From Crocinitomicaceae bacterium (lineage in GTDB: Bacteria; Bacteroidota; Bacteroidia; Flavobacteriales_D; Crocinitomicaceae): 64,000 nucleotides of DNA. Shown in pieces: positions 10,970 to 29,676 of this stretch. Position numbers and translations under genes: made by a program. Numbering within the stretch: the stretch's first letter is position 1; each line of letters starts with the position of its first letter. The DNA is taken from assembly GCA_044340465.1 (NCBI GenBank), contig JBIITO010000001.1, positions 39-64,038 of the forward strand, in the 5' to 3' direction. The notes beneath the pieces are model-generated. The model worked only from the letters and a program-made list of their open reading frames with translations. It was not told the origin of the DNA and searched no databases.

Positions 10970-11980
10970 CTAGTTTATCACACGCGGCACAAAAGTCTTT
11001 TTACCATTTATATAAGAAAGGGAAAATTCTACTGCACGATTTTTAAAGGTCGATAGATATCCCGTTCCGACACAATAACTCAATCGAAATGTAACACCAG
11101 AAACACTTAATCCCGTTTGAAGGATAACCGCATTATTCTTTCTCCAATTGGCGCCAAGAATCACCTTACTTTGTTCATTCATATGGTAGTAAATAAGGGT
11201 TCCTATATTTAATTCGTGTGCGCCGGTCTGATACATATACAATGTCTGTGGCGCAAGGGTAAACCTTTCATCGAGCCTGTACAAAGCGGAAAAATGACCA
11301 TTATAACGTAAAGGAGCGGGTAAATAAACTCCATTAAATCGTTCCGTGCTTTTCGTAATATTATAAATGGAAGCCCCTGCATTTATAATCAATTTATTTT
11401 CATACAAATTGGCCTTATAGTTGATTCCACTATTACCAGAAAATTGAACTTTCACTGAACTCTGAAAATTTTCTCCGCTAGGTAGAGTCTGATCGAATCC
11501 ATCTGGCGCATTGGATGAATATTGCAGATCGTAGGTAAAATTGCCCGTGGAAAAACTATTATTCAATAACCCTAATTGCATCCCTATTGCTAGTTCATGT
11601 TTTTCTTGACTTCGAGCGTTGGAACCTATCATTTTATATGAAACGCCATAATTAAAGTTAGAAACATTAAACACATTATTCGGACTCTTGGTATTACTGA
11701 AAAAGGCCCCCGTAGAGAATCTTTCTCCCACAGAAAAATCTAACCCAACAAGAAAGGATTTATACGAATCGGCACTGGATGTATAATTAGAACGCTGATC
11801 TCGATATCCGGAAGTTAATCGAACTCCCAGATATTTTTCATCTGTTCTATCCCCTATTAATGCTGGATTCAAATTTAGTGGCAAGGCGTCAAATTGAGAT
11901 TGTTGGTAATCTTGAGCCCTTAATTGACCAACAAATTGAAAAAAAGAGATCAAAAACGCAAATTTTGAAAGCGTACTCAT
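10970..11980 (-). CDS. PorP/SprF-family type IX secretion system membrane protein
   Basis: Signal peptide, then AQDYQQSQFDALPLNLNPALIG (family-typical N-terminus). ~330-aa beta-barrel-like composition. Lies 1 nt downstream of a type B CTD gene, the sprB-sprF type arrangement. Confidence 0.85.
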   Translation of the reverse strand: MSTLSKFAFLISFFQFVGQLRAQDYQQSQFDALPLNLNPALIGDRTDEKYLGVRLTSGYRDQRSNYTSSADSYKSFLVGLDFSVGERFSTGAFFSNTKSPNNVFNVSNFNYGVSYKMIGSNARSQEKHELAIGMQLGLLNNSFSTGNFTYDLQYSSNAPDGFDQTLPSGENFQSSVKVQFSGNSGINYKANLYENKLIINAGASIYNITKSTERFNGVYLPAPLRYNGHFSALYRLDERFTLAPQTLYMYQTGAHELNIGTLIYYHMNEQSKVILGANWRKNNAVILQTGLSVSGVTFRLSYCVGTGYLSTFKNRAVEFSLSYINGKKTFVPRVIN

Positions 11981-11981
11981 T

Positions 11982-14963
11982 TTAATATCGTTTAAGATTA
12001 ATTACTCCATACTCATTTAAAGCGGCGCCATTGAGTTCTTCTCCAACTATCACATACTCAAATGCTCCAGAAGGTTGAAGTTTTCCACTATAAGTACCGT
12101 CCCAACCCAAAAGTGGATCATTGGAACTGAATACAAGATTTCCCCATTCATTAAATACTTTCATTTGAAATGATCGAAAGGGACCGCCCCGAACAAGGAA
12201 TACGTCATTTTTGCCATCACCATTAGGGGTAAAAGCGCTGGGCACCGCCACACTTGAGCTTTCTATGATAACGATGGTATCACAACGTTTAGACTCACAG
12301 CCGAATAGGCTTTTAGAAGTCAAACAAATTTCAAATTCGCCAGTAGCTTCATAATAGTGCGCTGGCTCCAACAAATTGGATGTATAACCATCACCAAATG
12401 ACCATAAATAGGTGCTTGCATCTAACGAATGGTTTTTAACAAATGATTGTGATTCCGGATAAAACAATGTGTCTTCGACAAGAGTAAAATCAGCTATTGA
12501 AGGGTTTTGTAATTGAACGAAATTGTTTTGTACCAATGAATCCTTACATCCATTGGGCTTTGTAACGATTAATTTAACATCATAATTGGCTGTTGAATTA
12601 TAGATATTTGTTGGGTTTTCAAGTGTTGATATTGAACCATTGCCAAAATCCCACAGGTAACCGGAACCATCATCATGAGTTGAGTTATTAGAAAATTTAA
12701 CCGTGTAAGGAGCACAGCCAAAAGCCGATGGTGCGGTGAAGCTAACTATTGGCTTCAAGTCCATACCAATAGGTAGGCTAATGGTGTCTGAACAGCCCTG
12801 ATCCGTTACTACTGCCAACTGAGCAGTATATGTACCAGGTTGGTTGTAAACTACTTGAGGGTTTTGTACATCAGCAGTAAATCCATTGCCAAAACTCCAA
12901 TTCCATTTTTGAACATTACCCGAAGTTGAAACAGAAAGATCTTCAAATTTCGTTATGCCCCCAGCACAATTCTGGTTAACTTGAAAATTAGCAACAACCC
13001 CACTCAAGACTTGAATAAGATCTTTTTTAGTTATGGTATCTGCACAGCCACCTGGAGCGGTGGAAATTAATCTAACGGAAAACAAACCGCTTTCCCCAAA
13101 AATTTTTTTTGGATTCACAACGGTGCTCTGAGCGCCATTGCCAAAATCCCATGTATAGGATGAGCCAGCAGAGGTGTTTGAGGTGTTTGTAAATGAAACA
13201 CTTAACGGAACACAACCCAAATTGTCGATAGATATAAAATTAGCTTTAGGTTTATTTCTTACGAAAAGTGTCTTGGTAACTTCATCGGAGCATCCAAAAG
13301 AATTAGTTACATCCAGGGTAACCGAAAAATTACCTTCAGAAGGATAACTACATAAAGGATTTTGAAGATTGCTTGTTGCTCCATTACCAAAATTCCAACT
13401 CCAGGATGAATTGGTATTCCCAGATTGAACCACTTCATTAAATTGAATGGGGGTGTTTATACATGCAGGTTCATGCTCGAATTCGGCTATCGGTGACTCC
13501 AAAACAGTTACGTAATTCAATTTTATGAGTGAGTCTATGCATCCGTTAGGTGAACTCACTGTTAACTTTACTGTGTATTGGCCTGCATTTGAATATATTT
13601 TAGCTGGATTTTTTAGTAACGAAAATGTATTGTCTCCAAAATTCCAATAGTAAATCGAAGCCGGATCAGTAACTGATTTATCTACGAATGAAGTAGACAG
13701 TGGTGAACACCCTGATTCCGAAGTATTAGAAAACATGACTATCGGCTTATTATCGATTGTGATGTCTTCTTTATAAATGCTTTGTAAACCATTGCTACCA
13801 GTAACAGTTAAGGTAACCGTGTATACACCTGCCACACCATATATATTTACAGGATTCTTAGAGGAACTTTTGTTAACGTCTCCAAAATCCCATTGGTAAG
13901 AAGCGATTGTTCCATTAGCATAAGAAGATTGATTAGTAAAATTTATCTCACTACGCGCACACTTGCCATTATATATAAACTTCGCTGTAGGTCGATCTAC
14001 TAAAACAGTATCAAAATACGTTGAAGAGCATTCCTTATTTGTTGCCGTCAAACTAACTGGAAAAAAACCACCACCCATGTAGGTGCGAATTGGGTCTGAA
14101 GCGGTACTTTGCATACCATCACCGAAATCCCAAAGGTAAGTTGCTAAATCAGATGTATTTGTAAAAAAAACGCTGTCTTGATCAGGGCTTACAGAGAAGC
14201 TAAAAGAAGCGACAGGTATCGCTCCAACGTTGAGCGTTTGATTGGCTGAATATACACAGCCCTCATTGGTTGTTACGTTCAATATAACAGAATAAACACC
14301 GGAATCGTATATGGCCGAACCTAGTTGTGTGTTCGCTGATACTCCGTTTCCAAAATCCCAAGACCAACTTGATACAGATTTACCATTTACGTTGATAGGA
14401 CCAGAAAAATATGCTGTGTCCCCCTCACACAAAGAAGTAGTAGATATCCCTAAAAAAGAGGAGCCACTTCCTAAGTTGATAAATTTATGTTTACACTCAC
14501 TTCCGTTTAGGAGAGTAGTGATCGAATTAAAATCGTCAGAATCTATCAGGGTACAAGCGCTAGCCAATTTAAATCTTAAGTAGATTAATGTTGTATTCTT
14601 CGGTATGTTGTAAGATGCTATTGGACCTGATGTTGTATTACTCAGAAATTGATTAAACGGATTATAATACGTGTATGGATCCAAAGCTGAAACCATGTTG
14701 ATGGTAGAGTCATAGGTCATTTCTGATTGGTTATATTTGAACCAGAAATCGAAATTACTTATCGGACCATTCGATTTAACAATGACCGGAATATCATAAT
14801 AATAAGGTCCATTTCCAGAAAACAATGCTTTACTGAGGTCAAAAAACATTGTGTCATTGGCAACATCATAAGCTGGAACTGGATATTTTAGTGTTCCTGC
14901 ATGCACGGTAGCAGAGAGAGTCATCGACAAAAAAATAGTAACCCCTAAAACAATGTACTTCAT
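11982..14963 (-). CDS. Surface protein: N-terminal cohesin-like module, nine PKD domains, T9SS type B C-terminal domain
   Basis: Signal peptide MKYIVLGVTIFLSMTLSATVHA. Nine W.(F)G(D/N)G PKD cores (WSWDFGNG, YLWDFGDG, YQWDFGDV, YYWNFGDN, WSWNFGNG, YTWDFGNG, WNWSFGNG, YLWDFGNG, YLWSFGDG). C-terminus VPSAFTPNGDGKNDVFLVRG...MKVFNEWGNLVF...WDGTY...GAFEYVI...GVINLKR. Confidence 0.9.
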   Translation of the reverse strand: MKYIVLGVTIFLSMTLSATVHAGTLKYPVPAYDVANDTMFFDLSKALFSGNGPYYYDIPVIVKSNGPISNFDFWFKYNQSEMTYDSTINMVSALDPYTYYNPFNQFLSNTTSGPIASYNIPKNTTLIYLRFKLASACTLIDSDDFNSITTLLNGSECKHKFINLGSGSSFLGISTTSLCEGDTAYFSGPINVNGKSVSSWSWDFGNGVSANTQLGSAIYDSGVYSVILNVTTNEGCVYSANQTLNVGAIPVASFSFSVSPDQDSVFFTNTSDLATYLWDFGDGMQSTASDPIRTYMGGGFFPVSLTATNKECSSTYFDTVLVDRPTAKFIYNGKCARSEINFTNQSSYANGTIASYQWDFGDVNKSSSKNPVNIYGVAGVYTVTLTVTGSNGLQSIYKEDITIDNKPIVMFSNTSESGCSPLSTSFVDKSVTDPASIYYWNFGDNTFSLLKNPAKIYSNAGQYTVKLTVSSPNGCIDSLIKLNYVTVLESPIAEFEHEPACINTPIQFNEVVQSGNTNSSWSWNFGNGATSNLQNPLCSYPSEGNFSVTLDVTNSFGCSDEVTKTLFVRNKPKANFISIDNLGCVPLSVSFTNTSNTSAGSSYTWDFGNGAQSTVVNPKKIFGESGLFSVRLISTAPGGCADTITKKDLIQVLSGVVANFQVNQNCAGGITKFEDLSVSTSGNVQKWNWSFGNGFTADVQNPQVVYNQPGTYTAQLAVVTDQGCSDTISLPIGMDLKPIVSFTAPSAFGCAPYTVKFSNNSTHDDGSGYLWDFGNGSISTLENPTNIYNSTANYDVKLIVTKPNGCKDSLVQNNFVQLQNPSIADFTLVEDTLFYPESQSFVKNHSLDASTYLWSFGDGYTSNLLEPAHYYEATGEFEICLTSKSLFGCESKRCDTIVIIESSSVAVPSAFTPNGDGKNDVFLVRGGPFRSFQMKVFNEWGNLVFSSNDPLLGWDGTYSGKLQPSGAFEYVIVGEELNGAALNEYGVINLKRY
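12290..14440 (-). repeat. Array of nine tandem PKD domains (coding repeat)
   Basis: The nine PKD core motifs listed for the 11982-14963 CDS are spaced ~80-90 aa apart. Boundaries are approximate. Confidence 0.8.
14454..14897 (-). other. Cohesin-like module (N-terminus of PKD protein)
   Basis: YYYDIPVIVKSNGPISNFDFWFKYNQSEMTYDST...TLIYLRFKLAS parallels the type I cohesin pattern (V.IPV......I...DF...YD...L......G.FA.I.F.V). Clear paralogy to 15277-15663 (shared FDLS, ISNFDF.FK.N.S..TYD, NTTSGP, YNI, LNGS/MNGS). Confidence 0.45.
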
Positions 14964-14997
14964 ATCTTATCGCTTTAAATTCGCTTGATTGGTCATT

Positions 14998-15726
14998 TCA
15001 GTTAGAAATGATGATCTTTTTAAAACAGCTTTTTTGATGTGTGTTAACTGTAATTAAATAGTATCCAGGATTCAATTGTTCGAATGGCAAACAAATTGTT
15101 CCGCCTTGGGCTTTGATTTGGCTCACAATCTGACCATTAGTTGCACTGATGAGCGCATCTTTAAACATTGGGTCTGTGATCGTAATATCGTTTTTTACCG
15201 GGTTTTGAATGCTGTACTCACATGGTATTGGATTTGATATAATTGACAGGCCAACTCCGGGATTCCATGATGATTTTGGAGTCCAATAGAAATTGCCCGG
15301 ACTTCCATTCATTAAAGCTGAGCATTCAAAAAAATCTGTAGGCTTAATAATTACATCTGAATTAGCAAGAATGAATCTAACTTTAACTAAGGTATTCTTA
15401 CTTTCAATATTGTAGTTTAAATTGGGACCTGACGTTGTATTTCTCAAATAACGATCAGAAGAATTAAAAAATGAACTAGTCTCCAAATTAATATCCACAG
15501 CTGTTGTGGCATCATAGGTTAATTTGCTTTCATTGAACTTAAATGAAAAGTCAAAATTACTTATGCCGCCAGTAGTGATCACATAAATCGGAAATTCGAA
15601 ATAAACACCTCCAGCACTATTATATGTTGTTGCACTAGAAAGGTCAAACACCAACGTGTCCTTATCCGATTGAGCAAAAAATAATGAATTACGAATTAAC
15701 AAAATAAGTAACAATAATCTTTTCAT
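14998..15726 (-). CDS. Small secreted protein: cohesin-like module plus T9SS type A-like C-terminal domain
   Basis: Start reset to the ATG giving MKRLLLLILLIRNSLFFAQ. Cohesin-like segment VYFEFPIYVITTGGISNFDFSFKFNESKLTYDAT...TLVKVRFILAN. C-terminus IQNPVKNDITIT...GQIV......LNPGYYLITVNT....KKIIIS resembles a Por secretion tail. Confidence 0.65.
   Translation of the reverse strand: MKRLLLLILLIRNSLFFAQSDKDTLVFDLSSATTYNSAGGVYFEFPIYVITTGGISNFDFSFKFNESKLTYDATTAVDINLETSSFFNSSDRYLRNTTSGPNLNYNIESKNTLVKVRFILANSDVIIKPTDFFECSALMNGSPGNFYWTPKSSWNPGVGLSIISNPIPCEYSIQNPVKNDITITDPMFKDALISATNGQIVSQIKAQGGTICLPFEQLNPGYYLITVNTHQKSCFKKIIISN
15277..15663 (-). other. Cohesin-like module
   Basis: See the 14998-15726 CDS. 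Paralogous to the module at 14454-14897. Confidence 0.45.
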
Positions 15727-15807
15727 AGCTCGATTGATTAGTCTTTGTACAAATAAGGAAGTCGCCACTCTAAAGAATGGCAACTTCCATTGAAATAAAT
15801 ATTGCGG

Positions 15808-18800
15808 TTATTTATTCACGACCACACGCTCCGTTTTACTGTATTGACCAGTAGCTATTTTAATGAAGTAGACTCCATTAGCATACAAACTCATGTCAAG
15901 TTCCACTTTTTCGTTCGCGTTAATATTGAATTGCTCCTTTACTTCCTGACCAGTAACTGTCATGATAGTCACTTGCGCATTCTGAGAAGAAACAATATTT
16001 AAAGCGCGCTGTGTTGGATTCGGGAATACATTAACAAAGTTTTCATTGATCACATTTACACCCAATGGGGTATTACTGAACACCAATTCTACAGGCTGAC
16101 CGTTTAACAATGCAAGCGTATTAGAGAAATCCATCTCTTTGATTTTGTTAACACTGGCATCGAATTTAACTTTAGCGAATGTTTCATTTGTGTTGAAGAA
16201 TTCCATATCGAGCGCTGTGTAACGAAGTGTCCGGTCATCCTCATTGAAATGAGCAAACCCTTCTGTTGTAGTACCGACAGAAACCATATCATTGAATGAA
16301 AATTTGTTTTCATCGAATTGGAATGCCAAGTCGATTGCATTTACGGGCTCCGATGCTTCGAAAGTTACAGGAACTTCAAAACTATTACCGTTAAAAACAG
16401 CCTTTTCAAGATCAACAATCACTTTTCCGAAAGTAGACTTCAACACACCATCCGCAGTGTATGCGTCATAGTTACCATCTACATCACCCAGCATAATACC
16501 CTTATAAGTCTCCTCAATAAGGTTCGGACAATTGGTGGTGTCTGATGCGCGTGCCGAAAGAACAGATGGTACGACTGGCACTTTATATTTGGAGTAACCA
16601 ACCAAGTCATTATTAGGGAACGTTGCAGAAATCTGATAAGCTGGTTTGGTCAGACGCATGGAATCCACAAAGATCCAGTCTTTTGATGGCTGTCCATTTG
16701 AAACTCCTTCAGCATTGTAGTTCCATGCCTGACGGAATTCACCAATGTTCAGTGTTGCTCTTTGCTTCAACTGAGAAATATCACCTGCACTCACAACACC
16801 GTCAAGGTTTACATCAAGAGCAAGAATCTGATAGATTGAAGGCGTAAAGGTTAAAGCATCATTCAAAAGAAGAGTCTTGCCAAGCACTGCATCATTAGCA
16901 TTGATAATTAATTGCACTGTTGATGTGTTGCTTACTTCTCTTTCAATACTAAGACCCAATCCATTTTTGAGATTATGTTCAAACTGACCGGTTGTATTAG
17001 GAGTAATAGAAACAGATTGATTAACTAAAAGAGAAGTTGTGTCAGCTCCTTTCACTCGCGTGATCAAGTAGCTGTTCGGCAATGAGGCGTCATAGCGGAT
17101 AGGCTGGTGGTTCTTCCAATGTCTTAATTTACCTTTGTAAGAAAGATTCTTAAATGATCTCCACTTACCTGCTGAGGCTGCTCTAGACTGAACCCCAGTA
17201 ATGTAACTTTCCTGAAGGAATGATGTTGAGAACGCTGCCGAATCTACAGCTGCGAAACCACCTGTTTTCTGAAATTCAACACAAAATACTTTTCCTGTAC
17301 CATTGAATTCTGAATTTGCAGGAGCACTACCCTTAAAGTTGATCTGGACAGTAAATTTACCATTCGCCGGATCATCCACATGAGATTCCTCCAATAATCC
17401 ACTACTCACCAAGTCCGAAAACAGAGTTACATTTCCTGTTGGGGTTACTTTCGTTTTGTCGTAATTCAAAACAACATCATAGCCGATGACATTATCAACG
17501 GGTGAAGTTATTGAAGCTGATAATGTCATGCACAAAGTATTGATATCACACGCCTGATCAACCACATCTAACGCATAAGGCAGTGCGTTTGGATCTGCAA
17601 TGTTCAAGGTTACACCTGCAGTTGTTGTTGTAGCATTTTTGTTATCCGTAGCACGAACTGTAAACACTTTAGAACCTGGAGTAGATGTCCAACTAAAGGC
17701 ATATGGAGCGCTGGCGTCTGAACCTACAACTGTACCATTCACCAAAAATTCAACTAATGTAACTGTACCGTCTGCATCAGATGCATTTGCTGTAATGTTT
17801 ACTGCTGTAGGAGCAATAACAGACTCAGAACCTGTAGGAGCAGTAATAGATACAGTTGGAGGAGTATTCAATGCTACTGTGATGTTTGCAACCGACGAAG
17901 TCGTTGTCAAACCTTGATCATCCGTAGCGATTGCTTTGATCTGGTGCGCACCGGCAACTGCGGTCCAATTAATAGAATAAGGCGAAGTGTTATCTGTTCC
18001 TATTGAAACATTATCCACAAGGAACTCAACTGAAGCCACAGATCCCGGAGCTGCATCACTCGCAGTTGCTGTTATAGAAACATTATCTTGCTCAATGGCT
18101 GTCGTAGGAGCAGAAACACTTACAGAAGGTGCTGTATTAGTAACAGCCGTTACCGAAATAGCGGTAGAGGTAGTTGAAGCACACTCGTTATCTAATGCAA
18201 CAGCAGTGAAAGAACGAGCACCTGCCACTGCCGTGTAAGAAATAGAATAAGGTGCCGTGTTATCTACTCCTAAAGAAGTAGCACCATCAAAGAACTCCAC
18301 CTGTGTTATTGTTCCACCGTTGACGTCCCCAGCAGTGGCCGTGATTGTCTGAGATGAACCCGTATACCAGGTTGCACCGGATGTAGGTGAGGTAATAGAA
18401 ACAGTTGGAGGTGTATTCGGTACATACGTTAGTGATGCATTTGTTAGCTCAGATCCCGTTGGGTTTGAAGCAACATAGTTCTCTGCAATACCTGTTGCAA
18501 TATTCTGGATCTGCACATTCAATTCGAAACTTAACTGACCATTTGTGGTGAACTGAGCAACCAGTACCCTGTTCTCCGCTGTTGGACCCACAATGCCACC
18601 CAATGCGGCTATTGAACCTGCGTCAATTAATACTGAGCCTCCATTGGTTTGATCTAAAACATCAAGAGCAGATCCTAACCCAAGTCCGTTAGGTACTACA
18701 TAATAAGTTGATCCAACAGGAGGAGTGTTTGGAACGAAACCGTCTTTTGCACCAGAGCCTGTAATCGGATCACCAAAACATCCACCAGGATTATTTGCAA

Positions 18801-19254
18801 GTATAGATTGAGCATTCCCTATCGAACCATCTGAATCCAATGATTTTTGAACCCCGATGTAACCACCTCCTGCACCTCCGGTAGCAAACCAAGAGTCGAT
18901 CATGGCTGTGTTTTTGCGAATGTTGGAAGCACTAATTGTATTTGGATTAAGTGATACCCCATAAGTTGGATCATTGTAAAAGGCTGTGGTAGTATTTACT
19001 TTGAGTGCATGTGCAGAATTTCCGAACAGTAGGTTAAACTTATACCCAGCAGCCATGTCAACATACACACGATAGGTCACCGAATTAGTCGTAAGAGGTG
19101 TTACGGCTCCATTTGCAGATGCATTGGAGACGTCAGCAGCATTTGCTTGGTAGTATTTCTCTACAATGATCCCTTCCAAACCTTGCGCATGCGTAAGATT
19201 TCCGATCATTGCAAGCCCAAATCCAAGCAATAATTTTTTTGTGTTCGTTTTCAT
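15808..19254 (-). CDS. 1148-aa multidomain T9SS cargo: unassigned LEGIxVEKYY head domain, 3 Ig-like repeats, cohesin-like module, dockerin-like Ca loops, second cohesin-like module, type A CTD
   Basis: Signal peptide MKTNTKKLLLGFGLAMIGNLTHAQ. Head domain residues ~25-278. Ig repeats ~280-555. Cohesin-like 1: VIGYDVVLNYDKTKVTPTG...GKVFCVEFQKT. Dockerin-like: ALDVNLDGVVSAGDISQLKQRA and LGDVDGNYDAY. Cohesin-like 2: FEVPVTFEASEPVNAIDLAFQFDENKFSF...ETFAKVKFDAS. CTD: VNVFPNPTQRALNI....VTIMTVTGQEV......LYANGVYFIKI......RVVVNK. Confidence 0.85.
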   Translation of the reverse strand: MKTNTKKLLLGFGLAMIGNLTHAQGLEGIIVEKYYQANAADVSNASANGAVTPLTTNSVTYRVYVDMAAGYKFNLLFGNSAHALKVNTTTAFYNDPTYGVSLNPNTISASNIRKNTAMIDSWFATGGAGGGYIGVQKSLDSDGSIGNAQSILANNPGGCFGDPITGSGAKDGFVPNTPPVGSTYYVVPNGLGLGSALDVLDQTNGGSVLIDAGSIAALGGIVGPTAENRVLVAQFTTNGQLSFELNVQIQNIATGIAENYVASNPTGSELTNASLTYVPNTPPTVSITSPTSGATWYTGSSQTITATAGDVNGGTITQVEFFDGATSLGVDNTAPYSISYTAVAGARSFTAVALDNECASTTSTAISVTAVTNTAPSVSVSAPTTAIEQDNVSITATASDAAPGSVASVEFLVDNVSIGTDNTSPYSINWTAVAGAHQIKAIATDDQGLTTTSSVANITVALNTPPTVSITAPTGSESVIAPTAVNITANASDADGTVTLVEFLVNGTVVGSDASAPYAFSWTSTPGSKVFTVRATDNKNATTTTAGVTLNIADPNALPYALDVVDQACDINTLCMTLSASITSPVDNVIGYDVVLNYDKTKVTPTGNVTLFSDLVSSGLLEESHVDDPANGKFTVQINFKGSAPANSEFNGTGKVFCVEFQKTGGFAAVDSAAFSTSFLQESYITGVQSRAASAGKWRSFKNLSYKGKLRHWKNHQPIRYDASLPNSYLITRVKGADTTSLLVNQSVSITPNTTGQFEHNLKNGLGLSIEREVSNTSTVQLIINANDAVLGKTLLLNDALTFTPSIYQILALDVNLDGVVSAGDISQLKQRATLNIGEFRQAWNYNAEGVSNGQPSKDWIFVDSMRLTKPAYQISATFPNNDLVGYSKYKVPVVPSVLSARASDTTNCPNLIEETYKGIMLGDVDGNYDAYTADGVLKSTFGKVIVDLEKAVFNGNSFEVPVTFEASEPVNAIDLAFQFDENKFSFNDMVSVGTTTEGFAHFNEDDRTLRYTALDMEFFNTNETFAKVKFDASVNKIKEMDFSNTLALLNGQPVELVFSNTPLGVNVINENFVNVFPNPTQRALNIVSSQNAQVTIMTVTGQEVKEQFNINANEKVELDMSLYANGVYFIKIATGQYSKTERVVVNK
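16069..16428 (-). other. Cohesin-like module 2 of the 1148-aa protein
   Basis: GKVIVDLEKAVFNGNSFEVPVTFEASEPVNAIDLAFQFDENKFSFNDMVS...ETFAKVKFDASVNK...LNGQPVE. Confidence 0.45.
16750..16821 (-). other. Dockerin-like / EF-hand-type Ca-binding loop plus helix
   Basis: I verified the hand translation of 16750-16821 as ALDVNLDGVVSAGDISQLKQRA (compare the dockerin F-hand D.N.DG.....D...L). A weaker second loop, GDVDGNYDAY, lies at ~16459-16494. Confidence 0.45.
17185..17589 (-). other. Cohesin-like module 1 of the 1148-aa protein
   Basis: LCMTLSASITSPVDNVIGYDVVLNYDKTKVTPTGNV...FTVQINFKG...GTGKVFCVEFQKTG. Confidence 0.45.
17590..18417 (-). repeat. Three tandem ~92-aa Ig-like (Big-type) coding repeats
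   Basis: NTPPTVSITSPTSG...ITATAGDVNGGTITQVEFFDGATSLGVDNTAPYSISYTAVAGARSFTAVALDN; NTAPSVSVSAPT...ITATASDAAPGSVASVEFLVDNVSIGTDNTSPYSINWTAVAGAHQIKAIATDD; NTPPTVSITAPT...ITANASDADGTVTLVEFLVNGTVVGSDASAPYAFSWTSTPGSKVFTVRATDN. Confidence 0.8.
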
Positions 19255-19278
19255 TTTTATTTTTGTTTTTTCGTGTTG

Positions 19279-19367
19279 TTTAATAGCACCTCGTAACGCA
19301 TTTAAAAAGCGATAAAAAGTACCTGTTTCACGGACAGGGAACTATGATTGTTACGAGGGCTATTAAA
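19279..19367 (-). ncRNA. Structured intergenic element: 18-bp interrupted stem enclosing a small hairpin (candidate processing site, attenuator or MITE-like unit)
   Basis: tttaatagc(a)cctcgtaac at 19279-19297 is the reverse complement of gttacgagg-gctattaaa at 19350-19367 (9+9 bp, one bulged base). Inner hairpin cctgt(19322-26)/acagg(19334-38). On the mRNA strand the inner hairpin is followed by UACUUUUUAU. Confidence 0.4.
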
Positions 19368-19376
19368 CGATTTTTC

Positions 19377-21536
19377 TTAGTTACAAGTCGTATTAAAACC
19401 AGGAGCGAAGATTAAGAAGTCATTCACGTCTGTGTCACCGTCTTTGTCCAAGTCGGTTGGACAAGCTTTTACACCCAAGGTTTGACCAAGCACTTGAGAA
19501 TAAGACCAGTCGGACAACCAGTTCTGACCAGGCGTAGAAGAGAACGCACCTCTATAAGGAGCAGGCTCAAAGAAACCATCAGATGGAGGTGTTGGGCATC
19601 CCGTGATAGATAGTGGCGTGGTTGGTACCGGATCATTTTTGGTGATGATCGCATTGGTGTTACCATTTATGGCAAATGCTGAACTGAAACCTGTAAGCGA
19701 AGCTAGTACATCGTTTTTGTCTGTTGTAGTGAATTGTGTTGTTTCGGTAGTGTTAGCAGCTGTACCATTGGCAGCCAAAGTGCTACCATTAATTACCAAA
19801 GAGTTTGTGTTTCCTATCAAGGTATTACACTTAATTTTCAAACTTTCAGTATTTGCATCAGGATCTTGCTGAGCCACTTCAGTAGTCCAGTTTTGGTATG
19901 AATTAAAGGTACGTCCATTCGTAATTCCTTTTTCAATATTGATACCGTTTTTAAATCCAGCAATAATTGAATTGTAAAGCTCACCTTCAGCACCATCTTT
20001 AAAGTTGGCTCCTGACAAAGATCGGTTGTCCGCTGAACCAGTAGTTTTACTGTTACCCATTAAAGTAAAGTTGTACAATATAGGATGTGATCTTGGTGTA
20101 GCGTTATTTGAATTGTCATCAGAATCTGCTTCAATACCATTATCATTGTCAGCACTAACATTGCCAGTACCACCCTGGTCAGCCTTCATTCCGTAAAAGA
20201 ATTGCGCTTTACCTGTCCAACCTAAATCGTAATCGAACATGTCATCGTTACCAAAAAGTGTAGTACAATATTTAAGATTCACTGTTCCACCGAAAACCTC
20301 GATATTATCATCTGCACACGAAACGATTTCAATGTGTTCAATTTTAGTACCACGACCAACCGAAGCAAGTGTTAAACCATTGATCTCAGAACCTACTAAA
20401 AGGTTCGCTCCTGAGTGACGGATGGATACATACGTCATTACACCTGAATTGTCATTGTCATCGAAAGAACCTGTATTTGTATAGTATGCACCAACATAAC
20501 TTGCTACGGTTCCACTAGTTCCAGAAGTTGGAGCAGTTCCAGAAGCAGGTGCGACATAAGTCATAGAACTAAAATAACCCGTTGCACCTGGATTTGGATA
20601 ATCTCCTCCAAAAGTGATTACATCACCTGCAGTAACAGCAGCAGTAAGGTTAGCTGAAAGGGTAAGAGTTGTCGTAAAAGGACCAGTACCTGTTTGGGCA
20701 ATACTTAAAATTGTCGAACCTGCCGCAATACCTGTTCCAGACACCGTTTGACCCTGAACGACGTAAGCAAGTGGTGAAGCCGAGCTAGAAAGTGTCAATT
20801 TGTTCTGTCCGGAAGCATTTGAGCCAGACACCGCATTTCCTGCCGTTAAATCAAACGTGTAGGACCCTGAAGGCGAAGTTGAAAGCACTGTACCATCTGG
20901 TATGCTCGTAGCCACCCCAAACTGATCTTGAGGATAAGAAGATGCAAAACCTTCAATTACTCCTAAACCATCTGCAACCGCCATTTTACCACCTTGCCCA
21001 GGAACGAACGGACCGTTGGTCGCCAACTTAAGGTTGTTGGATGCTTTGCCTAATACAAGCACCCCTCCCCACATACCTTTATTTGTAACTCCGTATGAGC
21101 CGTTAAGTGGGTCTGCGGCAGCCGTAAATACAATTGGACATGATTCTGTACCGGGAGCCATAATTTTACCTCCTCGTTCGATGATCAATGCCGTAGCAGC
21201 AGCAAGCGAGGGCGCAACGGTACCTTTTATTACTGTTCCTGGCTCGATGGTTAGCGTTGCACCAGGTGCCACATATATTTTTTGATCTAATGTCCAGATT
21301 TTGTCACACGTTAAAGTGACATTTCCCGTTATTTCACCTCCATAAGCAGAGGCGGCAAGGTTGGTCCACGCACCATTCGCCTGCGCCAAACTTTGAATCG
21401 TTTGCGTGGTTCGAGAGGTAGTGGAAGGACAGCCACAAGCTGCACCCAGGTTTTGTTGTGCAATTGACGCACTTGTTCCCAACACTGACATTGAGGCCAG
21501 CGTAAGTAGACTTTTCATCGTCTTTTTTGTTTTCAT
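19377..21536 (-). CDS. 719-aa secreted protein (possible parallel beta-helix-like repeats) ending in a dockerin-like Ca-binding motif; no T9SS CTD
   Basis: Signal peptide MKTKKTMKSLLTLASMSVLGTSASIAQ. G/T/S/N-rich with repeated short strands (IEHIEIVSCADDNIEVFGGTVNLKYCTTLFGNDDMFDYD). I hand-verified the last 29 aa as ACPTDLDKDGDTDVNDFLIFAPGFNTTCN. Confidence 0.7.
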   Translation of the reverse strand: MKTKKTMKSLLTLASMSVLGTSASIAQQNLGAACGCPSTTSRTTQTIQSLAQANGAWTNLAASAYGGEITGNVTLTCDKIWTLDQKIYVAPGATLTIEPGTVIKGTVAPSLAAATALIIERGGKIMAPGTESCPIVFTAAADPLNGSYGVTNKGMWGGVLVLGKASNNLKLATNGPFVPGQGGKMAVADGLGVIEGFASSYPQDQFGVATSIPDGTVLSTSPSGSYTFDLTAGNAVSGSNASGQNKLTLSSSASPLAYVVQGQTVSGTGIAAGSTILSIAQTGTGPFTTTLTLSANLTAAVTAGDVITFGGDYPNPGATGYFSSMTYVAPASGTAPTSGTSGTVASYVGAYYTNTGSFDDNDNSGVMTYVSIRHSGANLLVGSEINGLTLASVGRGTKIEHIEIVSCADDNIEVFGGTVNLKYCTTLFGNDDMFDYDLGWTGKAQFFYGMKADQGGTGNVSADNDNGIEADSDDNSNNATPRSHPILYNFTLMGNSKTTGSADNRSLSGANFKDGAEGELYNSIIAGFKNGINIEKGITNGRTFNSYQNWTTEVAQQDPDANTESLKIKCNTLIGNTNSLVINGSTLAANGTAANTTETTQFTTTDKNDVLASLTGFSSAFAINGNTNAIITKNDPVPTTPLSITGCPTPPSDGFFEPAPYRGAFSSTPGQNWLSDWSYSQVLGQTLGVKACPTDLDKDGDTDVNDFLIFAPGFNTTCN
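19380..19466 (-). other. C-terminal dockerin-like / EF-hand-type loop bracketed by two Cys
   Basis: C-PT-DLDKDGDTDVNDFLIF-APGFNTT-C-N. A D.D.DG.....D..L.F loop plus helix. Confidence 0.4.
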
Positions 21537-21686
21537 AAATAAATTATTTCTCGTTTACGAAGCAAAATTATGAGGCGGGTATGCCTTGAATATTAGCCCG
21601 AAATTATTTCTCTGCTAATCTTTTGCTCAAAAAGCGTACTAACGATATTAAGAATGCGTTAACTAGTTAACTATATTTAAAGAAGA

Positions 21687-22355
21687 CTAAAGACTTCTTA
21701 CCATTCCCATCTGGATACCACTGGAATATAAGCGACAAGGCAGCTCGCCTTTAGTCAATGGATTTATTTGAAATTGTCCGCAGAATTGCGTTCGAAAATT
21801 CCAGTTCTGATTCATACGAACACTTAGACCTATAGCCAACTGACCAAACACGGCAAAGGAAAAAGATCCCGGATAAACGGTAGTTCTTTGTAATGCATAG
21901 GCCTCATTGGTTCGATAAACAGCACGACTCTTTAATAAGACCGAAGAAACAAGCGCAGGTTGAAGAACCAACTGAAGTTTCTCATTTACTCTTTTGTAAA
22001 AATTACACCCTAGAGGAAACTGAAGGTAATGAAAGTTTAAGCGGTAGGATCGAAATCCATCCATGGTTTGGTCCTTATGTTGATACCCGTAATTACTATA
22101 TGCTATCCCCACGAAGAAAGATTTTCTCTCGGAAATTCCAAATTCATAGTTTATAAATGCACTACAACTAAGTTTTACCTCATGCGTACTGTCATGTTGC
22201 CGCTTGATCCAAGACAAATCTTCATTTTTTAATCCAAAAACACGATAGTTTACTGAGGGTGAAAAACCAAATGCCACAGCCTGCAATTTGTCTCGCTGAG
22301 CTAAACAACAGAGGGAAAGTGTAATAAATATTAAAAATAAAGTACTCGTTTTCAT
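21687..22355 (-). CDS. Outer-membrane beta-barrel protein (PorT/OmpW-size class)
   Basis: Signal peptide MKTSTLFLIFITLSLCCLAQ. 222 aa with alternating strands rich in aromatic residues and Gly. Confidence 0.5.
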   Translation of the reverse strand: MKTSTLFLIFITLSLCCLAQRDKLQAVAFGFSPSVNYRVFGLKNEDLSWIKRQHDSTHEVKLSCSAFINYEFGISERKSFFVGIAYSNYGYQHKDQTMDGFRSYRLNFHYLQFPLGCNFYKRVNEKLQLVLQPALVSSVLLKSRAVYRTNEAYALQRTTVYPGSFSFAVFGQLAIGLSVRMNQNWNFRTQFCGQFQINPLTKGELPCRLYSSGIQMGMVRSL

Positions 22356-22449
22356 ATGTAAATAATTTGTCTTTTAAAGGTCATATGGAATACGCCATGC
22401 TATTTTCATCGGTGCTTGCGCGAGGAGTTTGCATGGCTATTTCATAGAA

Positions 22450-23160
22450 TTAATCTTTTACGCAACGTACACTCATGCCATATTGGACATGAGCTAATTG
22501 CCTGAAAATGGTTTTTTTCTTCGCATCAAAATAACGATACCATGCTTCTGAACCATTGAGAGTTGAAGTCCAAAAGAAAGCCATATTCGCATTAACAGAG
22601 GCTATTCCATTGAATGTTTTGCACCCTGCCGGTAAAATTTTCATCTGATACTTATCGTTCCCGAAAGGCACACTATTCGTAGGCCAACCTTCCGAATAAT
22701 TGGGCAATAAGTCTTCCGCTTCATCAGTACCGCGCCATGCAAATGCGCCTACTTCATCATTCGACATGCCGATAAACCGTTCCAAGTCTTTCCAGTCTTC
22801 ATCTGTGGCAACATGCCAACCTGACGGTGCTAATTTCTTATCGCCTTGAATGGCTGACTGATTATATAAAAATCCATAAATCGAGTCGTTCAAAAAAGTG
22901 AAGCATGGGTCTGTACAGTTCGCCCACAAAGTATCTGAAGAAAAAATCGGAATATACTTGATTTCTGACCCATCGTTAAATTTGGTTACTTTCAGATTTT
23001 CTGCCATCCACCACTTTCCTCCAAGCAGAACTGTTTTGTAGACATTACCCTCAATATCCTTGACAGTTCCTGTTTGAATAGGCGCTTCTTGTGTTTCCTT
23101 TTTGCATGATGATACGGCTAAAGCGAATACCGTAATCATCCAAAAAAACTTAGTGTTCAT
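22450..23160 (-). CDS. FISUMP-domain (Fibrobacter succinogenes major paralogous domain) lipoprotein
   Basis: Start reset to MNTKFFWMITVFALAVSSC (lipobox-like Cys). GTVKDIEGNVYKTVLLGGKWWMAENLKVTKFNDGSEI is the characteristic D.(D/E)GN.Y.TV.IG.Q.WMAENL pattern. C-terminal WTST....AWYR......R.....G.SVRCVKD. Confidence 0.8.
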   Translation of the reverse strand: MNTKFFWMITVFALAVSSCKKETQEAPIQTGTVKDIEGNVYKTVLLGGKWWMAENLKVTKFNDGSEIKYIPIFSSDTLWANCTDPCFTFLNDSIYGFLYNQSAIQGDKKLAPSGWHVATDEDWKDLERFIGMSNDEVGAFAWRGTDEAEDLLPNYSEGWPTNSVPFGNDKYQMKILPAGCKTFNGIASVNANMAFFWTSTLNGSEAWYRYFDAKKKTIFRQLAHVQYGMSVRCVKD

Positions 23161-23161
23161 A

Positions 23162-24505
23162 TTAGTTGGATTTAACAAGGATGAGTGTTTTCACTTTTTC
23201 ACCAATTCGCACATTTAAATGATATAAACCATTTTCCAAATGAGAAACATCGAGGGATTCGCCAACGATTTTGTCCGAACCAGGAAGACTTTTTTGCAAT
23301 ACCTTCAACCCGTAGGCCGAGAATAACTCATAATCAATAGTCTCGTCTGTTATTCCCGAATATATATTCATTTTGAAATCTCCGTTGCTTGGGTTTGGAT
23401 AAACATCCAACTCAAATGATTCTCCCAAAAGCACAGGACACACTTGCGCGATATCTCTACCGTTGCAAAGCCCGGGATAGCAGCACAAGCCTTGCACATT
23501 GAAATTGGCAGTTGGATCAAAATTACATGCTATGGAATCCATACAACCGAGAATCAATGGCGTCAAACAGGTATTAGGTTGTAAACAAGCAACCCTCGGG
23601 TCGTATTCAAGGTAAGAGGGGTCATTGCAACCGCATTCCAGTGGATAGATCAAAAATGGATGGTATGTTTCCCCAGCTAATAACACACTATCTGAACCGA
23701 CAAAAACAAAGTTTTCCAGAGCACCATTTACCCATCCCTCTATTTCTAAATTCAGATGAAATGATAACTCCCCTTTGGTGGTGACCTGAGCAATGAGTAT
23801 CTGATTGCTATCAGGTATTACTCCAACCGTACCAGAGTTTCTTAATTCAAATTGGCGACTATTGAATTCCGTTCCGGGAACGACTGAGCCAAAAATGCTA
23901 CTATCAACTCCGGTTACAAAATCGGTAACTCCGTTAGCAAACCAGTTCGAGGGTTTTTTAACCAATGTATCCATACCATCTGCCACAGTTAATGGTCGCC
24001 CACAAGAAGGATCAATATTGGTAAGCAAACCAGAAGGTTTCATGGCGCTTCCGCCATCATTATTTATTCCCCCAATAAAAGAACCATCCAAATCAGAATC
24101 TTTTGGCAAGCCGAAATACGTTTTACTTCCCTGTGTTTTAGTTGTCTGACCAATTGTGAGCCAGCTATCCAAAGCAACGGTATTCTCTGAATAACGCGCT
24201 TTTACAAAATCTTTAGCAAAGGTTTGGCCATCAGACGAGTGATTATAAAAAGGTTCCGTACTCTGAATAATAAAGGGGTGGTTTTTATCGCCGTATAACT
24301 TTTTAAGAACATAACCGGGAGCTAGATCCACATAGATTCGATAGGTTGTGCTTCCAACCGGCAGTACTCCTCCAATGGTATTTGTAGCATCGTTAGCATC
24401 ACTCACATAATATTTTTCGACGAAGACTCTCTCCAGCTGAGCAAATCCCGATAAACCTAACAAAAGGAATATCAATAAAAGGCAATATTCAGTACTCTTT
24501 TTCAT
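23162..24505 (-). CDS. Secreted protein: unassigned LE..FVEKYY head domain, Cys-rich GC.D..ACNFDP-type modules, T9SS type A CTD
   Basis: Start reset to MKKSTEYCLLLIFLLLGLSGFAQ, 4 nt after the receptor stop. Head LERVFVEKYYVSDANDA...STTYRIYVDLAPGY...ILIAQVTTKGELSFHLNLEI. Cys-rich ECGCNDPSYLEYDP...GCMDSIACNFDPTANF. CTD VYPNPSNGDFKMNI...LENGLYHLNVRIGEKVKTLILVK. Confidence 0.8.
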   Translation of the reverse strand: MKKSTEYCLLLIFLLLGLSGFAQLERVFVEKYYVSDANDATNTIGGVLPVGSTTYRIYVDLAPGYVLKKLYGDKNHPFIIQSTEPFYNHSSDGQTFAKDFVKARYSENTVALDSWLTIGQTTKTQGSKTYFGLPKDSDLDGSFIGGINNDGGSAMKPSGLLTNIDPSCGRPLTVADGMDTLVKKPSNWFANGVTDFVTGVDSSIFGSVVPGTEFNSRQFELRNSGTVGVIPDSNQILIAQVTTKGELSFHLNLEIEGWVNGALENFVFVGSDSVLLAGETYHPFLIYPLECGCNDPSYLEYDPRVACLQPNTCLTPLILGCMDSIACNFDPTANFNVQGLCCYPGLCNGRDIAQVCPVLLGESFELDVYPNPSNGDFKMNIYSGITDETIDYELFSAYGLKVLQKSLPGSDKIVGESLDVSHLENGLYHLNVRIGEKVKTLILVKSN

Positions 24506-24509
24506 TTCG

Positions 24510-27500
24510 CTATAATTTGTAGGCAAGGCCAAGTGTAAATACTGTTCCGTATCTGAAACGGTCAAAATCAGCGTACCCATCGTTCAATTTATAGGCTCTT
24601 AGAACAGGTGCATTAAGAATGTCTCTGACCGTTAAGCTAGAAGAAAAATGTTTTCCTAAGGTTTTGGTGACCTTAAAGTCAAGAGAATGTCTCGGCATTT
24701 CATAAATATCTGGCCTTCCTTTTAAAATCCCTGTGATCACAAGCCTCGGTCCTTGCACGTTGTAGCTCACTGTTGCTGTCAATCCTAGGGAATCCGATTT
24801 ATAGGATAAAATACCGTTAATTATGTATGGCGCCTGACCAAACATTGTTCGTTGAACGGTATCAATTGGTATATATTCGATTTGATTTCCTGTCAAGATG
24901 ATAAAATCCTTTCGGACATATTGAGAATACGACTTGACAAAAGTTAAATTGGTTCTAAATTCCAAAAATTTACCAATTTGCTTTTTTCCTTCCAGTTCGA
25001 TTCCTGCGACATAAGAATTCTCATTATTATCCCAGGTGATTCCAGAACTACCAAAACCCATTTCAATATGGTTTGTAAAGTCTTTATAAAATAAACTGAA
25101 TGAAACATTATCGTTATTCCTAAAATAGGACTCAAATCTAAAGTCGAAATTATTGACCTCGGTAACCTTAAGGTTCGGATTTCCATAAATTAAGGTTCTG
25201 AACTCGTTATCATAAACGGCAGATGCACTCATCTCACGTATATTTGGACGAGCTACGGTCTGACTGAAATTGAATCGTAGATTCGTAGTTACTTTCTCTT
25301 CATTTCCTAACTTGAGTATCAGACTTCCCGATGGTAATAAATCAACTTGATCAATAATTCCCGGATTAATCAATGGATATCCAGGAATATTTACCCTTCT
25401 TCCGTCATTGATACCATAACCCAAAAGATCATATATGTATATATCAGACAACAACCCTGCTTTCTCGACGCGCAAACCACCATTGAATCGGAGCCTTTTG
25501 AAGACCTCGTAATCGACTAATCCATATCCGGATAGAATTGTACTATTTCCTATCGTTCGATTCCAATCCCAAATTTGATCCTGATAATAGAAATCAATTT
25601 GACCATTGGAAATCATGAACTTATCAGGAATTAAGTACATGTCAATATCATCGTTTTGCAACCCTTCGAATGCAACTTTATTCCCCTGAGCAAGAAAATA
25701 TTCATCCTGTTTAGAATTTCTATGCATCGCTTGATAAGCTGATCCAAACTTAAGTTTTCTTACAAGCTTCTTTTCCGGTTTAATCAAAGGAACCTCAATG
25801 GATAATCGGGTATCGAGAAGGTTCTCACTAAGGTACCTGTAGTAGCGACGAATACCATCGCCTGCATTTGGTGAAAACTGATACCCCTCAATAGAGTCAC
25901 CTATTCTAGTTGCGTCGTACTGTGTTAATTTAAAATCGGGGGCCACGCTGCTTCCCCGAGTGTAGGATACATTAGATTCGATTTTAATGTTGCTTTTTGG
26001 AAGAAGATGCTGTGATGATAATTGATAAATAAGTTGTTTGCGTTGTTCGTAGAAAATGTTTTTTCGAACACGATATTCTTGAAAATCATTCGTGTCCCAT
26101 TGGGTGGAAAAATTGGCCACGTCATTCGTTCCAATATAATTTGGCATAAACAAAACGGATACCTTATTATAGTCGTTTATCTTATACGCCAAATTGCTCA
26201 GCATGCTCCATGAATTTGTTTCACGACTGATGCGCGCATCATCAATAAATTCAATTGGATAATTAACTTCCTCTGCACCTATTCTTTGTGACACGCCGTT
26301 CGCATCGTAACGGATGGTATTTCCGTAACGAAATCCAAAAATATAGCCCAGGGGCCTGCCGAACAATTTAACCTGATCACCGATACTGAAATTTTGAGTG
26401 AAATTCAATGGTGCTTTGCGATACTTTACATTCCAATTATTGGCAAAGCCATTATTAAAATCAGTGCCTTCAGGGTTAATTAGAGCATATGCTTTTTGTG
26501 CATATTGAGAGTTATACTTTTTGAGCGCCGTTTGATAGGCAGACTGATCATTCATTTGAGAAGGGTTCAACAACCCTAACTGTATCAAACCTAATCTTAA
26601 ATAAGTTTCTTCCTCTGGACTTCCATCTGACCATCCCCTGACACCCAATTGGTCAAAATAACTTCCTAAGCCAAGCGCCACCATTTCCTGATAATTCGTT
26701 GGCTGAAGGATGGGAGCAGAAATTGTCGACTGAGAATCATCTCGTGAACGCAGACCACTATCAAAACCTAACCAATCCGTAGAACTTCGGTCTGAGGTAA
26801 CAAAATCACGAAATGTACTTTGGGCATTGTAGCCAATTTGTGACTCTACATTTACCATTAACTTATCTGGGTAATCTTTGGTTTCTACAGAAAGGTAGGC
26901 TCCTGTCCAATCACCCGGCAGATCCGGACTCGCCGTTTTCGTAATCACTATGTTGTCCACAAGGCTTGTAGGAATGATGTCAAGTTTGATATTGTTGGTT
27001 AAGGGGTCTAGAGTTGGTATTCTTGAACCGTTGAGGGTGGTTTTTACATATCTATCACCTATGCCCCTTACTGTTATTAATCCACCACTTGTAGAAACGC
27101 CCGAAACACGTGCGACAGCCGCTGTAACATTGGCATCACCGGTTTTTTTCATCGTTTCGGAGGAAATATAATCCAAGGTAGTAGCCGAATTGATTTTCAT
27201 TTTTTCCATGTAATAATCACTCGCCCTTACCTGTTTGGCAACCACTTTAACCTCCTTAATATCCCTAAGTTTATATGCTGTCATGGAGAAGTCTTTCACC
27301 AAAACCTGTTCATCTCTTAGTTTAATTCGCTGCGTGATGGTATCCATTCCCACAAAGGTTACCGAAAGCGTTTTTTCGTCGGATGTTTTGATCTGAAACG
27401 TGTAGTTACCATCCAAATCCGTTTTGGTGCCTACAGATGGCTCTTCTTTCAATGAAAGTCGTGCACCAATAATGGCTTCTCCATTTTCATCAGTCACCTT

Positions 27501-27572: not shown

Positions 27573-27592
27573 CGGAATCAAATTTTCTGTGC

Positions 27593-28690: not shown

Positions 28691-28692
28691 TT

Positions 28693-29526: not shown

Positions 29527-29676
29527 AGTAAGCAACGCAAACTGCGCGATGCAAGATTAGACAGAGCAGATAACTTTCAAATTAAATGTAAATTATTGTT
29601 AAGTTATGAAAGCAGCCTTTGGGTTATCAGAATTTTAAGCCTGTGTTTTGGAAATGTAAAAAGCAAACAAGATTTA

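Follow-up and report, generated by a model that had tools for sequence, protein, structure and literature searches.

Gram-positive cellulosomes are classically held together by modular pairs of cohesins and dockerins, and outside cellulosomes we know of very few such pairs that have a known role. In type IX secretion systems (T9SS), PorP/SprF proteins are the usual companions of cargo with a type B C-terminal domain (CTD), as with SprB/SprF and RemA of Flavobacterium johnsoniae, where cargo bearing a type B CTD is matched by its cognate PorP/SprF protein; to our knowledge, neither the SprB nor the RemA adhesin begins with a cohesin. In 'Ca. Stygibacter' (Cloacimonadota), a protein resembling scaffoldins, which has cohesins in tandem and a T9SS-type CTD, has been inferred in silico, together with dockerin-bearing enzymes (PMC8542988). 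Papers on Bacteroidetes describe few dockerins and T9SS cellulase systems that do without cohesins and dockerins (PMC6487960, PMC5831590). Our literature search found nothing on cohesins or dockerins in Crocinitomicaceae, Cryomorphaceae or Saprospiraceae. Here we describe four adjacent minus-strand genes, encoding the proteins p993, p261, p1148 and p719, in a 64,000-nucleotide stretch of contig JBIITO010000001.1 (hereafter the window), from a freshwater member of the Flavobacteriales that is Crocinitomicaceae-like. This region forms the downstream half of a cell-surface cluster of 11 genes that is conserved and lies wholly on the minus strand (about 10970-29535). The proteins here are annotated in the source record as 'hypothetical', and the region likely encodes a T9SS-anchored, non-cellulosomal cohesin–dockerin assembly. 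Its parts are listed below, with residues in amino acids (aa); ORF denotes an open reading frame and AF2 an AlphaFold2 model.

11982-14963, minus strand: p993, with an N-terminal cohesin, 9 PKD repeats and a type B CTD (CHU_C)
14469..14858, minus strand: p993 cohesin module, aa 36-165 (sub-threshold Pfam Cohesin match; p261-family profile)
14998-15783, minus strand: p261 ORF, TTG-started, with an N-terminal cohesin and a type A CTD
14998..15726, minus strand: likely true extent of p261, the start probably being M20
15259..15663, minus strand: p261 cohesin module, aa 41-175, of the module B (CohB) subfamily (hhalign, AF2, Foldseek)
15808-19254, minus strand: p1148, with an N-domain, 3 x Big_7, CohA, X, dockerin, extension, CohB and a type A CTD
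15814..16029, minus strand: p1148 T9SS type A CTD (Por_Secre_tail 52 bits; TIGR04183 46.4 bits)
16069..16437, minus strand: cohesin module B (CohB), p1148 aa 940-1062 (Pfam Cohesin, weak PDB cohesin matches, Foldseek)
16450..16749, minus strand: extension after the dockerin, p1148 aa 836-935, about 100 aa (invariant alignment columns, high predicted confidence)
16750..16929, minus strand: internal dockerin, p1148 aa 776-835, with a degenerate loop 1, a canonical loop 2 and three predicted helices
16939..17061, minus strand: X module, p1148 aa 732-772, a small beta domain separating CohA from the dockerin (AF2 strands)
17119..17577, minus strand: cohesin module A (CohA), p1148 aa 560-712 (AF2 beta-sandwich, Foldseek, orthologue Pfam matches)
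18409..19182, minus strand: p1148 N-domain, aa 25-282, with paralogues in p472, p365 and p280
19377-21536, minus strand: p719, a Sec-exported Beta_helix_4 (PF28492) protein without a T9SS CTD
19383..19463, minus strand: p719 tail, aa 692-718, CPTDLDKDGDTDVNDFLIFAPGFNTTC, a single dockerin-type Ca-loop and helix repeat with two bracketing Cys

The clostridial Coh-X-Doc scaffoldins (C. thermocellum CipA Coh9-X-DocII, 3kcp/4fl4; A. cellulolyticus ScaA/ScaB) were the top Foldseek matches, and the locus resembles them in its cohesin jelly rolls, in the X module just before the dockerin and in the side-by-side encoding of cohesin proteins. It differs from them in its Gram-negative host, in anchoring through T9SS CTDs as opposed to S-layer homology domains or sortase, and in the dockerin of p1148, which lies inside the protein (the C-terminus being needed for the CTD), has only one intact Ca loop and is followed by the conserved 100-aa extension; glycoside hydrolases are absent here, and what putatively serves as cargo is a beta-helix protein carrying one repeat. 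The cohesins of C. perfringens GH84C/NagJ (2jh2, 2ozn, 2w1n) and Archaeoglobus fulgidus (2xdh) are likewise non-cellulosomal, and they provided the best structural match for the p261 module and the best profile match for module B, but they are Firmicute or archaeal proteins that lack both T9SS signals and this gene cassette. With 'Ca. Stygibacter' the locus shares a CTD predicted to fix a cohesin protein to its own cell and partners with C-terminal dockerins, both systems being in silico predictions only. That system, however, belongs to another phylum and relies on one very large scaffoldin with carbohydrate-binding modules (CBMs) and hydrolase or peptidase cargo, whereas in this locus three proteins share the cohesins, the cargo is non-enzymatic or of unknown function and Cys residues bracket the dockerin repeat. 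The initial annotation of this DNA had known of no characterised T9SS-anchored assembly laid out in this way; given the Cloacimonadota scaffold, the layout is not wholly unprecedented. Like SprB/SprF and RemA, p993 has a CHU_C/TIGR04131 CTD with a PorP/SprF-like gene following it, although, unlike in those systems, no motility role is indicated.

The cohesin assignment depends on profiles and predicted structures. Single-sequence phmmer searches of PDB sequences with module B and with the whole of p1148 found no cohesin, so that profiles were needed. Module B scanned alone (p1148 aa 940-1070) scored 26.0 bits against Pfam Cohesin (PF00963), above the gathering (GA) score of 24.1 bits, and the N-terminal module of p993 scored 15.3 bits, below it; the p261 module and the window copy of module A had no direct Pfam match, and 8 of 17 module A orthologues matched Pfam Cohesin (best E 7.5e-5). 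Searched against the PDB, the module B profile gave weak cohesin matches, the p261/p993 family profile gave none of any kind, and the module A profile gave a chance match to hemophilin only. The p261 and p993 modules are 39% identical to each other, and their family, which gathered 18 matches in a word-indexed search and 428 representatives in an exhaustive one, aligns with module B at an hhalign probability of 99.5% (E 4e-23); module A and module B align weakly (15%). Sequence comparison thereby groups module B with the p261 and p993 modules in one subfamily and sets module A apart as a second, more divergent cohesin type.

From module A to module B, p1148 spans 520 residues, a stretch for which 78 homologues were found (PF00963 precomputed in 14, PF00404 in 1), and an AF2 model of aa 552-1071 built on 43 of them reached a predicted local distance difference test score (pLDDT) of 91.7 and a predicted template modelling score (pTM) of 0.80. 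Against the PDB, Foldseek returned almost exclusively cohesins for this model: the best was the A. cellulolyticus cohesin dyad 3l8q (E 5e-10), the CipA Coh9-X-DocII construct (4fl4_C/3kcp_A) matched at E ~1e-9 over about 235 aligned columns, and single cohesins ranked next, with TM up to 0.78. Since the alignment behind the Coh-X-Doc match is sequential and about 235 columns long, it must run on from module A, which supports a cohesin fold for that module, the structural coverage of module A itself being read from the dyad and Coh-X-Doc matches. The model of p261 aa 36-190 (pLDDT 82.7) had the C. perfringens cohesin 2jh2 as its best match (E 9e-6; TM 0.5-0.6), followed by R. flavefaciens, A. 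cellulolyticus and C. thermocellum cohesins. In the AF2 models the nine-stranded beta-sandwich of the cohesin jelly roll is superposable on solved cohesins. All four modules thus have the cohesin fold, consistent with the initial annotation, whose quoted peptides all lie where expected in the four minus-strand ORFs. It had favoured type I and named generic Ig or CBM folds as the alternative; we assign the modules to neither type I nor type II. Type I, type II and non-cellulosomal cohesins dominate both Foldseek lists, and CBM2 structures appear only lower down, for the p261 module.

Between modules A and B, the dockerin of p1148 was recognised at family level. Residues 776-850 alone scored 24.9 bits against Pfam Dockerin_1 (PF00404; gathering score 22.9 bits), a score that falls to a sub-threshold 19.3-20.8 bits in longer p1148 contexts, and all 21 of the 21 orthologues of this region matched the family (best E 1.2e-8). 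The dockerin profile found 4fl4_A in the PDB at E 7.8e-4 and then the CelD, OlpC-type, ScaB and Xyn10B dockerins. The Dockerin_1 match begins at profile position 10. Loop 2, within aa 812-833, is canonical (D814-x-N-x-D-G-x-V-x-x-x-D825), and in the helix after it S, G, D, Q, Q and R are invariant surface residues among the orthologues. AF2 predicts three dockerin helices at model residues 235-245, 256-262 and 272-282 (pLDDT >90), and the predicted model thus has the three-helix dockerin fold; two tandem repeats that both combine a DxNxDGxxxxxD Ca loop with a helix are found neither in p1148 nor in p719. The X module is kept in p1148 orthologues. The extension is the most conserved stretch of p1148 in the orthologue alignment, with the motif EF.QAWNYN...SNGQ.SKDW.FVDS...GILLGDV.GNY, and is predicted to be well ordered and mostly coil; dockerin and extension together have a fixed length of 160-168 aa. 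The peptide GDVDGNYDAY (aa 923-932), which had been counted as a further dockerin loop, belongs to this extension, to which the Dockerin_1 profile gives no match, and we rejected it as a second dockerin repeat because it lies about 90 aa downstream, outside the Dockerin_1 match, with no subsequent repeat helix pattern.

The second dockerin-like element is the end of p719. This protein has >5000 homologous matches at 56-91% identity and no match in our local Pfam copy; a newer Pfam release names its family Beta_helix_4, PF28492. As had been noted, it has a signal peptide, recognised from the sequence as a signal-peptidase-I leader (...SIA/QQ) with an invariant A-Q cleavage site, and no T9SS CTD in Pfam and NCBIfam scans. 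A lipoprotein (Cys at residues 34 and 36) was considered and rejected, there being no lipobox and the A-Q site being invariant. The family comes in long (about 710 aa) and short (about 575 aa) forms, and the p719 of the window carries an extra Thr/Ser/Gly/Ala-rich insert (aa ~205-350, ~20490-20920) with weak similarity to a decoration protein of phage (8eci, E 0.3).

The last 28 residues of p719 follow the pattern C-x-T-D-x-[DN]-x-D-G-x-T-[DN]-x-x-D-F-L-I-F-A-P-A-F-G-x-x-C-N. Among the homologues listed, C692...C718 is kept in 119 of 120, the exception (P0096) being a C-terminally truncated fragment; counted as a pair, both Cys are present in 143 proteins, both are lost in 2 and a single one remains in 1, the joint retention or loss that is expected for a disulfide. 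The p719 family profile gave two weak PDB matches, of which the better, the dockerin 2y3n_B (E 0.041), is the sole one to fall on the tail, which aligns to both 2y3n_B repeats. The tail alone had no Dockerin_1 match in Pfam, NCBIfam had no model for p719, its tail or the p1148 dockerin region, and no NCBIfam model for a C-terminal anchor of the 'GC-type dockerin' style matched p719. Judged by its residues, the tail is a single disulfide-bracketed dockerin-type repeat and not a full dockerin; the C-terminal dockerin loop proposed earlier holds as a conserved repeat of dockerin type.

The module is portable. In related loci, other proteins with a signal peptide and no CTD end in a tandem two-repeat Cys-bracketed module (...C-x-x-C...C), one of which scores 26.5 bits against Dockerin_1, above GA. 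They comprise small Ig-like proteins, placed between the cassette and the cohesin-only gene, and one 2210-aa protein with Metallophos, PKD (PKD_6) and Calx-beta domains. The Ca-loop motif is otherwise rare: within the window it occurs in p1148 and p719 only, and outside the p1148 and p719 families in 7 of 8655 ORFs of related loci. The proteins with the tandem module, unrelated to p719, all adjoin the cohesin cassette:

L064:3542-10171, L104:3-4076, L142:11913-12752, L152:5795-6382, L155:5249-5827, L157:3184-4074: tandem-repeat proteins

The arrangement of these genes is conserved well beyond the window. Scanning 185,579 species genomes with a p719 profile yielded 219 loci, the best 80 of which come from metagenome-assembled genomes (MAGs) of freshwater Flavobacteriales (Crocinitomicaceae, Cryomorphaceae). 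Gene order is kept over >100 distinct loci from uncultured freshwater Bacteroidota genomes, and the cluster order of the window recurs on a 2.87-Mb contig and a 305-kb contig (L001, L002). A CohA-X-Doc-CohB protein is present in 50/82 p719 loci, nearly always directly downstream, and several cassette-less loci end at a contig edge, with the cassette opening another contig of the same MAG. A reciprocal scan with the CohA-X-Doc-CohB cassette gave 185 loci; wherever a cassette locus had at least 3 kb upstream (52/52), a Beta_helix_4 gene with the tail stood directly upstream on the same strand. Cohesin-only proteins occur in 65 of 79 distinct cassette loci and in none of 33 cassette-less ones, and this strict co-occurrence makes the X-dockerin and the p261/p993 cohesin the best-supported pair. 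At L154:5025-6923 and L159:6530-8356 both tail Cys are replaced jointly (N...DN, N...NN), and neither locus has a separate cohesin-only gene after the cassette despite a 5-10 kb flank; the two loci are probably related, and we did not use the coincidence as support.

The T9SS signals agree with the T9SS association attributed to these genes before. Using TIGR04183/PF18962 as models for type A and TIGR04131/PF13585 for type B CTDs, we found a type A CTD in p1148 and also in p261 (Pfam 29.7 bits, cut-off 27; NCBIfam 22.2 bits, slightly below 23), and a type B CTD in p993 (CHU_C 52.2 bits, TIGR04131 45.9 bits). The product of the gene after p993 scored 87.1 bits against TIGR03519 (E 1.3e-24), narrowly below the cut-off of 90.55, and is likely the partner of the p993 type B CTD. 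The cluster as a whole runs p280, p365 (CTD), a TonB-receptor-like protein with Plug, p472 (CTD), a FISUMP lipoprotein and an outer-membrane beta-barrel protein, continuing downstream with p719, p1148, p261, p993 and PorP/SprF. In Pfam and NCBIfam scans it contains no glycoside hydrolase, polysaccharide lyase or CBM, and it lacks what characterises a cellulosome, namely dockerin-bearing carbohydrate-active enzymes on a CBM-bearing cohesin scaffoldin. Its further features are:

10970..11980, minus strand: PorP/SprF-like T9SS membrane protein (TIGR03519 match)
21687..29535, minus strand: upstream part of the cluster (outer-membrane beta-barrel protein, FISUMP lipoprotein, p472, TonB-receptor-like protein, p365, p280)
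23162-24580, minus strand: p472, with an N-domain copy
27593-28690, minus strand: p365, with an N-domain copy
28693-29535, minus strand: p280, with an N-domain copy

The N-domain, of about 260 aa, is thus present in four paralogous copies in the window, recognisable by the motifs GLEGIIVEKYY and YRVYVD.A.GY. It matched no Pfam family, and a hidden cohesin was rejected as its identity (hhalign probability <1%).

Some smaller observations concern the genes themselves. The TonB-receptor-like protein (1023 aa, 24510-27581, minus strand) has CarboxypepD_reg and Plug domains and no Pfam barrel match, and it occupies the equal cluster position in L001 and L002. Just past the p1148 stop, a 14-bp GC-containing hairpin with a T-rich tail (15757-15788, minus strand) overlaps the N-terminal extension that the p261 ORF gains from its TTG start, whence the real p261 start is probably M20 (nt 15726); transcription may be attenuated at this hairpin. 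A sigma-70 promoter scan returned 60 sites against 53 expected and gave no information. A 105-aa ORF at 17600-17917 on the plus strand, antisense to the Big_7 region of p1148, is most likely spurious.

Taken together, the parts suggest a scheme in which, after T9SS export, the products would be held together at the surface as one assembly by cohesins and dockerin. The p1148 X-dockerin, which is internal, would plug into the N-terminal cohesin of p261 or p993, a contact that would tie p1148 to the type B protein anchored in the outer membrane. This would leave cohesins A and B as free sockets for the C-terminal dockerin-type tails of CTD-less proteins, candidates being p719 here and, among related loci, the small Ig-like proteins or the large Metallophos ones. 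We consider it about an even chance that the conserved cluster does hold a non-cellulosomal cohesin–dockerin cassette on T9SS cargo that joins into such an assembly. The weakest step of the scheme is the docking of the p719 tail on the cassette cohesins, which we regard as doubtful. A number of observations count against the assembly as a whole. Loop 1 of the p1148 dockerin is shortened and degenerate, and the pTM of the CohA-X-Doc-CohB model suggests a rigid unit whose dockerin may be engaged in cis. The p719 tail has a single repeat only, no way for p719 to cross the outer membrane is known, and the cluster has no cellulosome-typical enzyme domain. Furthermore, when 54 p719 loci were taken without bias, all with 4.5 kb or more of downstream sequence, an N-domain/CTD protein stands directly downstream of p719 in 54/54; it carries the cassette in 36 of these, the cassette lies elsewhere in the locus in 5, and no cohesin lies within 10 kb in the remaining 13, where the tail is equally conserved. 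At L074 and L029, for example, the protein downstream of p719 combines the N-domain with other middle domains and a CTD and has no cohesin. The N-domain protein is therefore the constant partner of p719, and the cassette an optional insertion. The cohesin tethering of p719 proposed in the initial annotation accordingly agrees with the invariant synteny seen from the cassette side and sits badly with the 13/54 loci that keep the tail.

How the tail should be read depends on these same counts. We give slightly less than even odds to the tail being a disulfide-locked, Ca-stabilised end cap, or else the ligand of an ever-present component and not of the cassette cohesins; that component could be the N-domain (in p280, p365, p472 and p1148) or one of the neighbouring outer-membrane proteins. 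The constancy of the downstream N-domain protein, set against a cassette within 10 kb in 41/54 loci, fits this well, as do the cohesin-free proteins at L074 and L029, the undiminished conservation of the tail where the cassette is missing, and the single repeat, whose Ca loop is also a weak match to the FG-GAP type. However, the tail is homologous to the portable module seen as a tandem pair on unrelated proteins, a point against a cap specific to the beta-helix, and the better of its family's two weak PDB matches, the only one on the tail, is a dockerin; moreover, the cassette-less loci were judged within 10 kb, and cohesins may lie elsewhere in those genomes. Since p719 lacks a known route across the outer membrane, its surface display would need piggy-back export with a CTD partner. 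An improbable extension of the scheme makes the Cys-bracketed tail a new kind of address tag, by which CTD-less Sec-exported proteins would, while in the periplasm, bind a cohesin or the N-domain of a partner that has a CTD, pass folded through the T9SS translocon on their partner and stay displayed on the surface; p719 and the Ig-like and Metallophos proteins of related loci may be candidates. Our literature search found nothing on T9SS piggy-back export and nothing that links cohesins to these protein families.

For p1148 itself, we think it rather unlikely that CohA-X-Doc-extension-CohB is a rigid adhesin-like stalk whose dockerin packs on its own neighbours, with no intermolecular assembly, and that p261 and p993 use their N-terminal cohesin-fold modules to bind a ligand other than a dockerin. 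The confidence of the four-domain, 520-residue model, the short linker to CohB within it, the fixed length and strong conservation of dockerin plus extension, and the degenerate first Ca loop would all be expected of such a stalk. The strict co-occurrence of cohesin-only proteins with the cassette would not be, nor would the portable C-terminal dockerin modules on unrelated proteins of the same loci or the invariant surface residues of dockerin helix 3, and the cis contact is a suggestion read from the pTM. It is very improbable that the cohesin-fold modules are CBMs and not protein sockets: the lower CBM2 matches of the p261 module and a weak CBM39 Pfam match (E 0.015) point that way, but cohesins dominate both Foldseek lists, module B exceeds the Pfam Cohesin threshold and a dockerin lies within the same protein, p1148.

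What the locus offers is a complete set of parts, in conserved order and on T9SS cargo: cohesins of two subfamilies, an X-dockerin and a dockerin repeat in minimal, disulfide-locked form. If these parts bind as proposed, they would form the first cohesin–dockerin surface assembly anchored via the type IX system in Bacteroidota, they would supply compact new orthogonal binding pairs for protein engineering, and they would pose a question that can be tested, namely by what route proteins without a CTD arrive at the surface. The N-domain and the very widespread Beta_helix_4 protein would, in turn, gain their first functional context.

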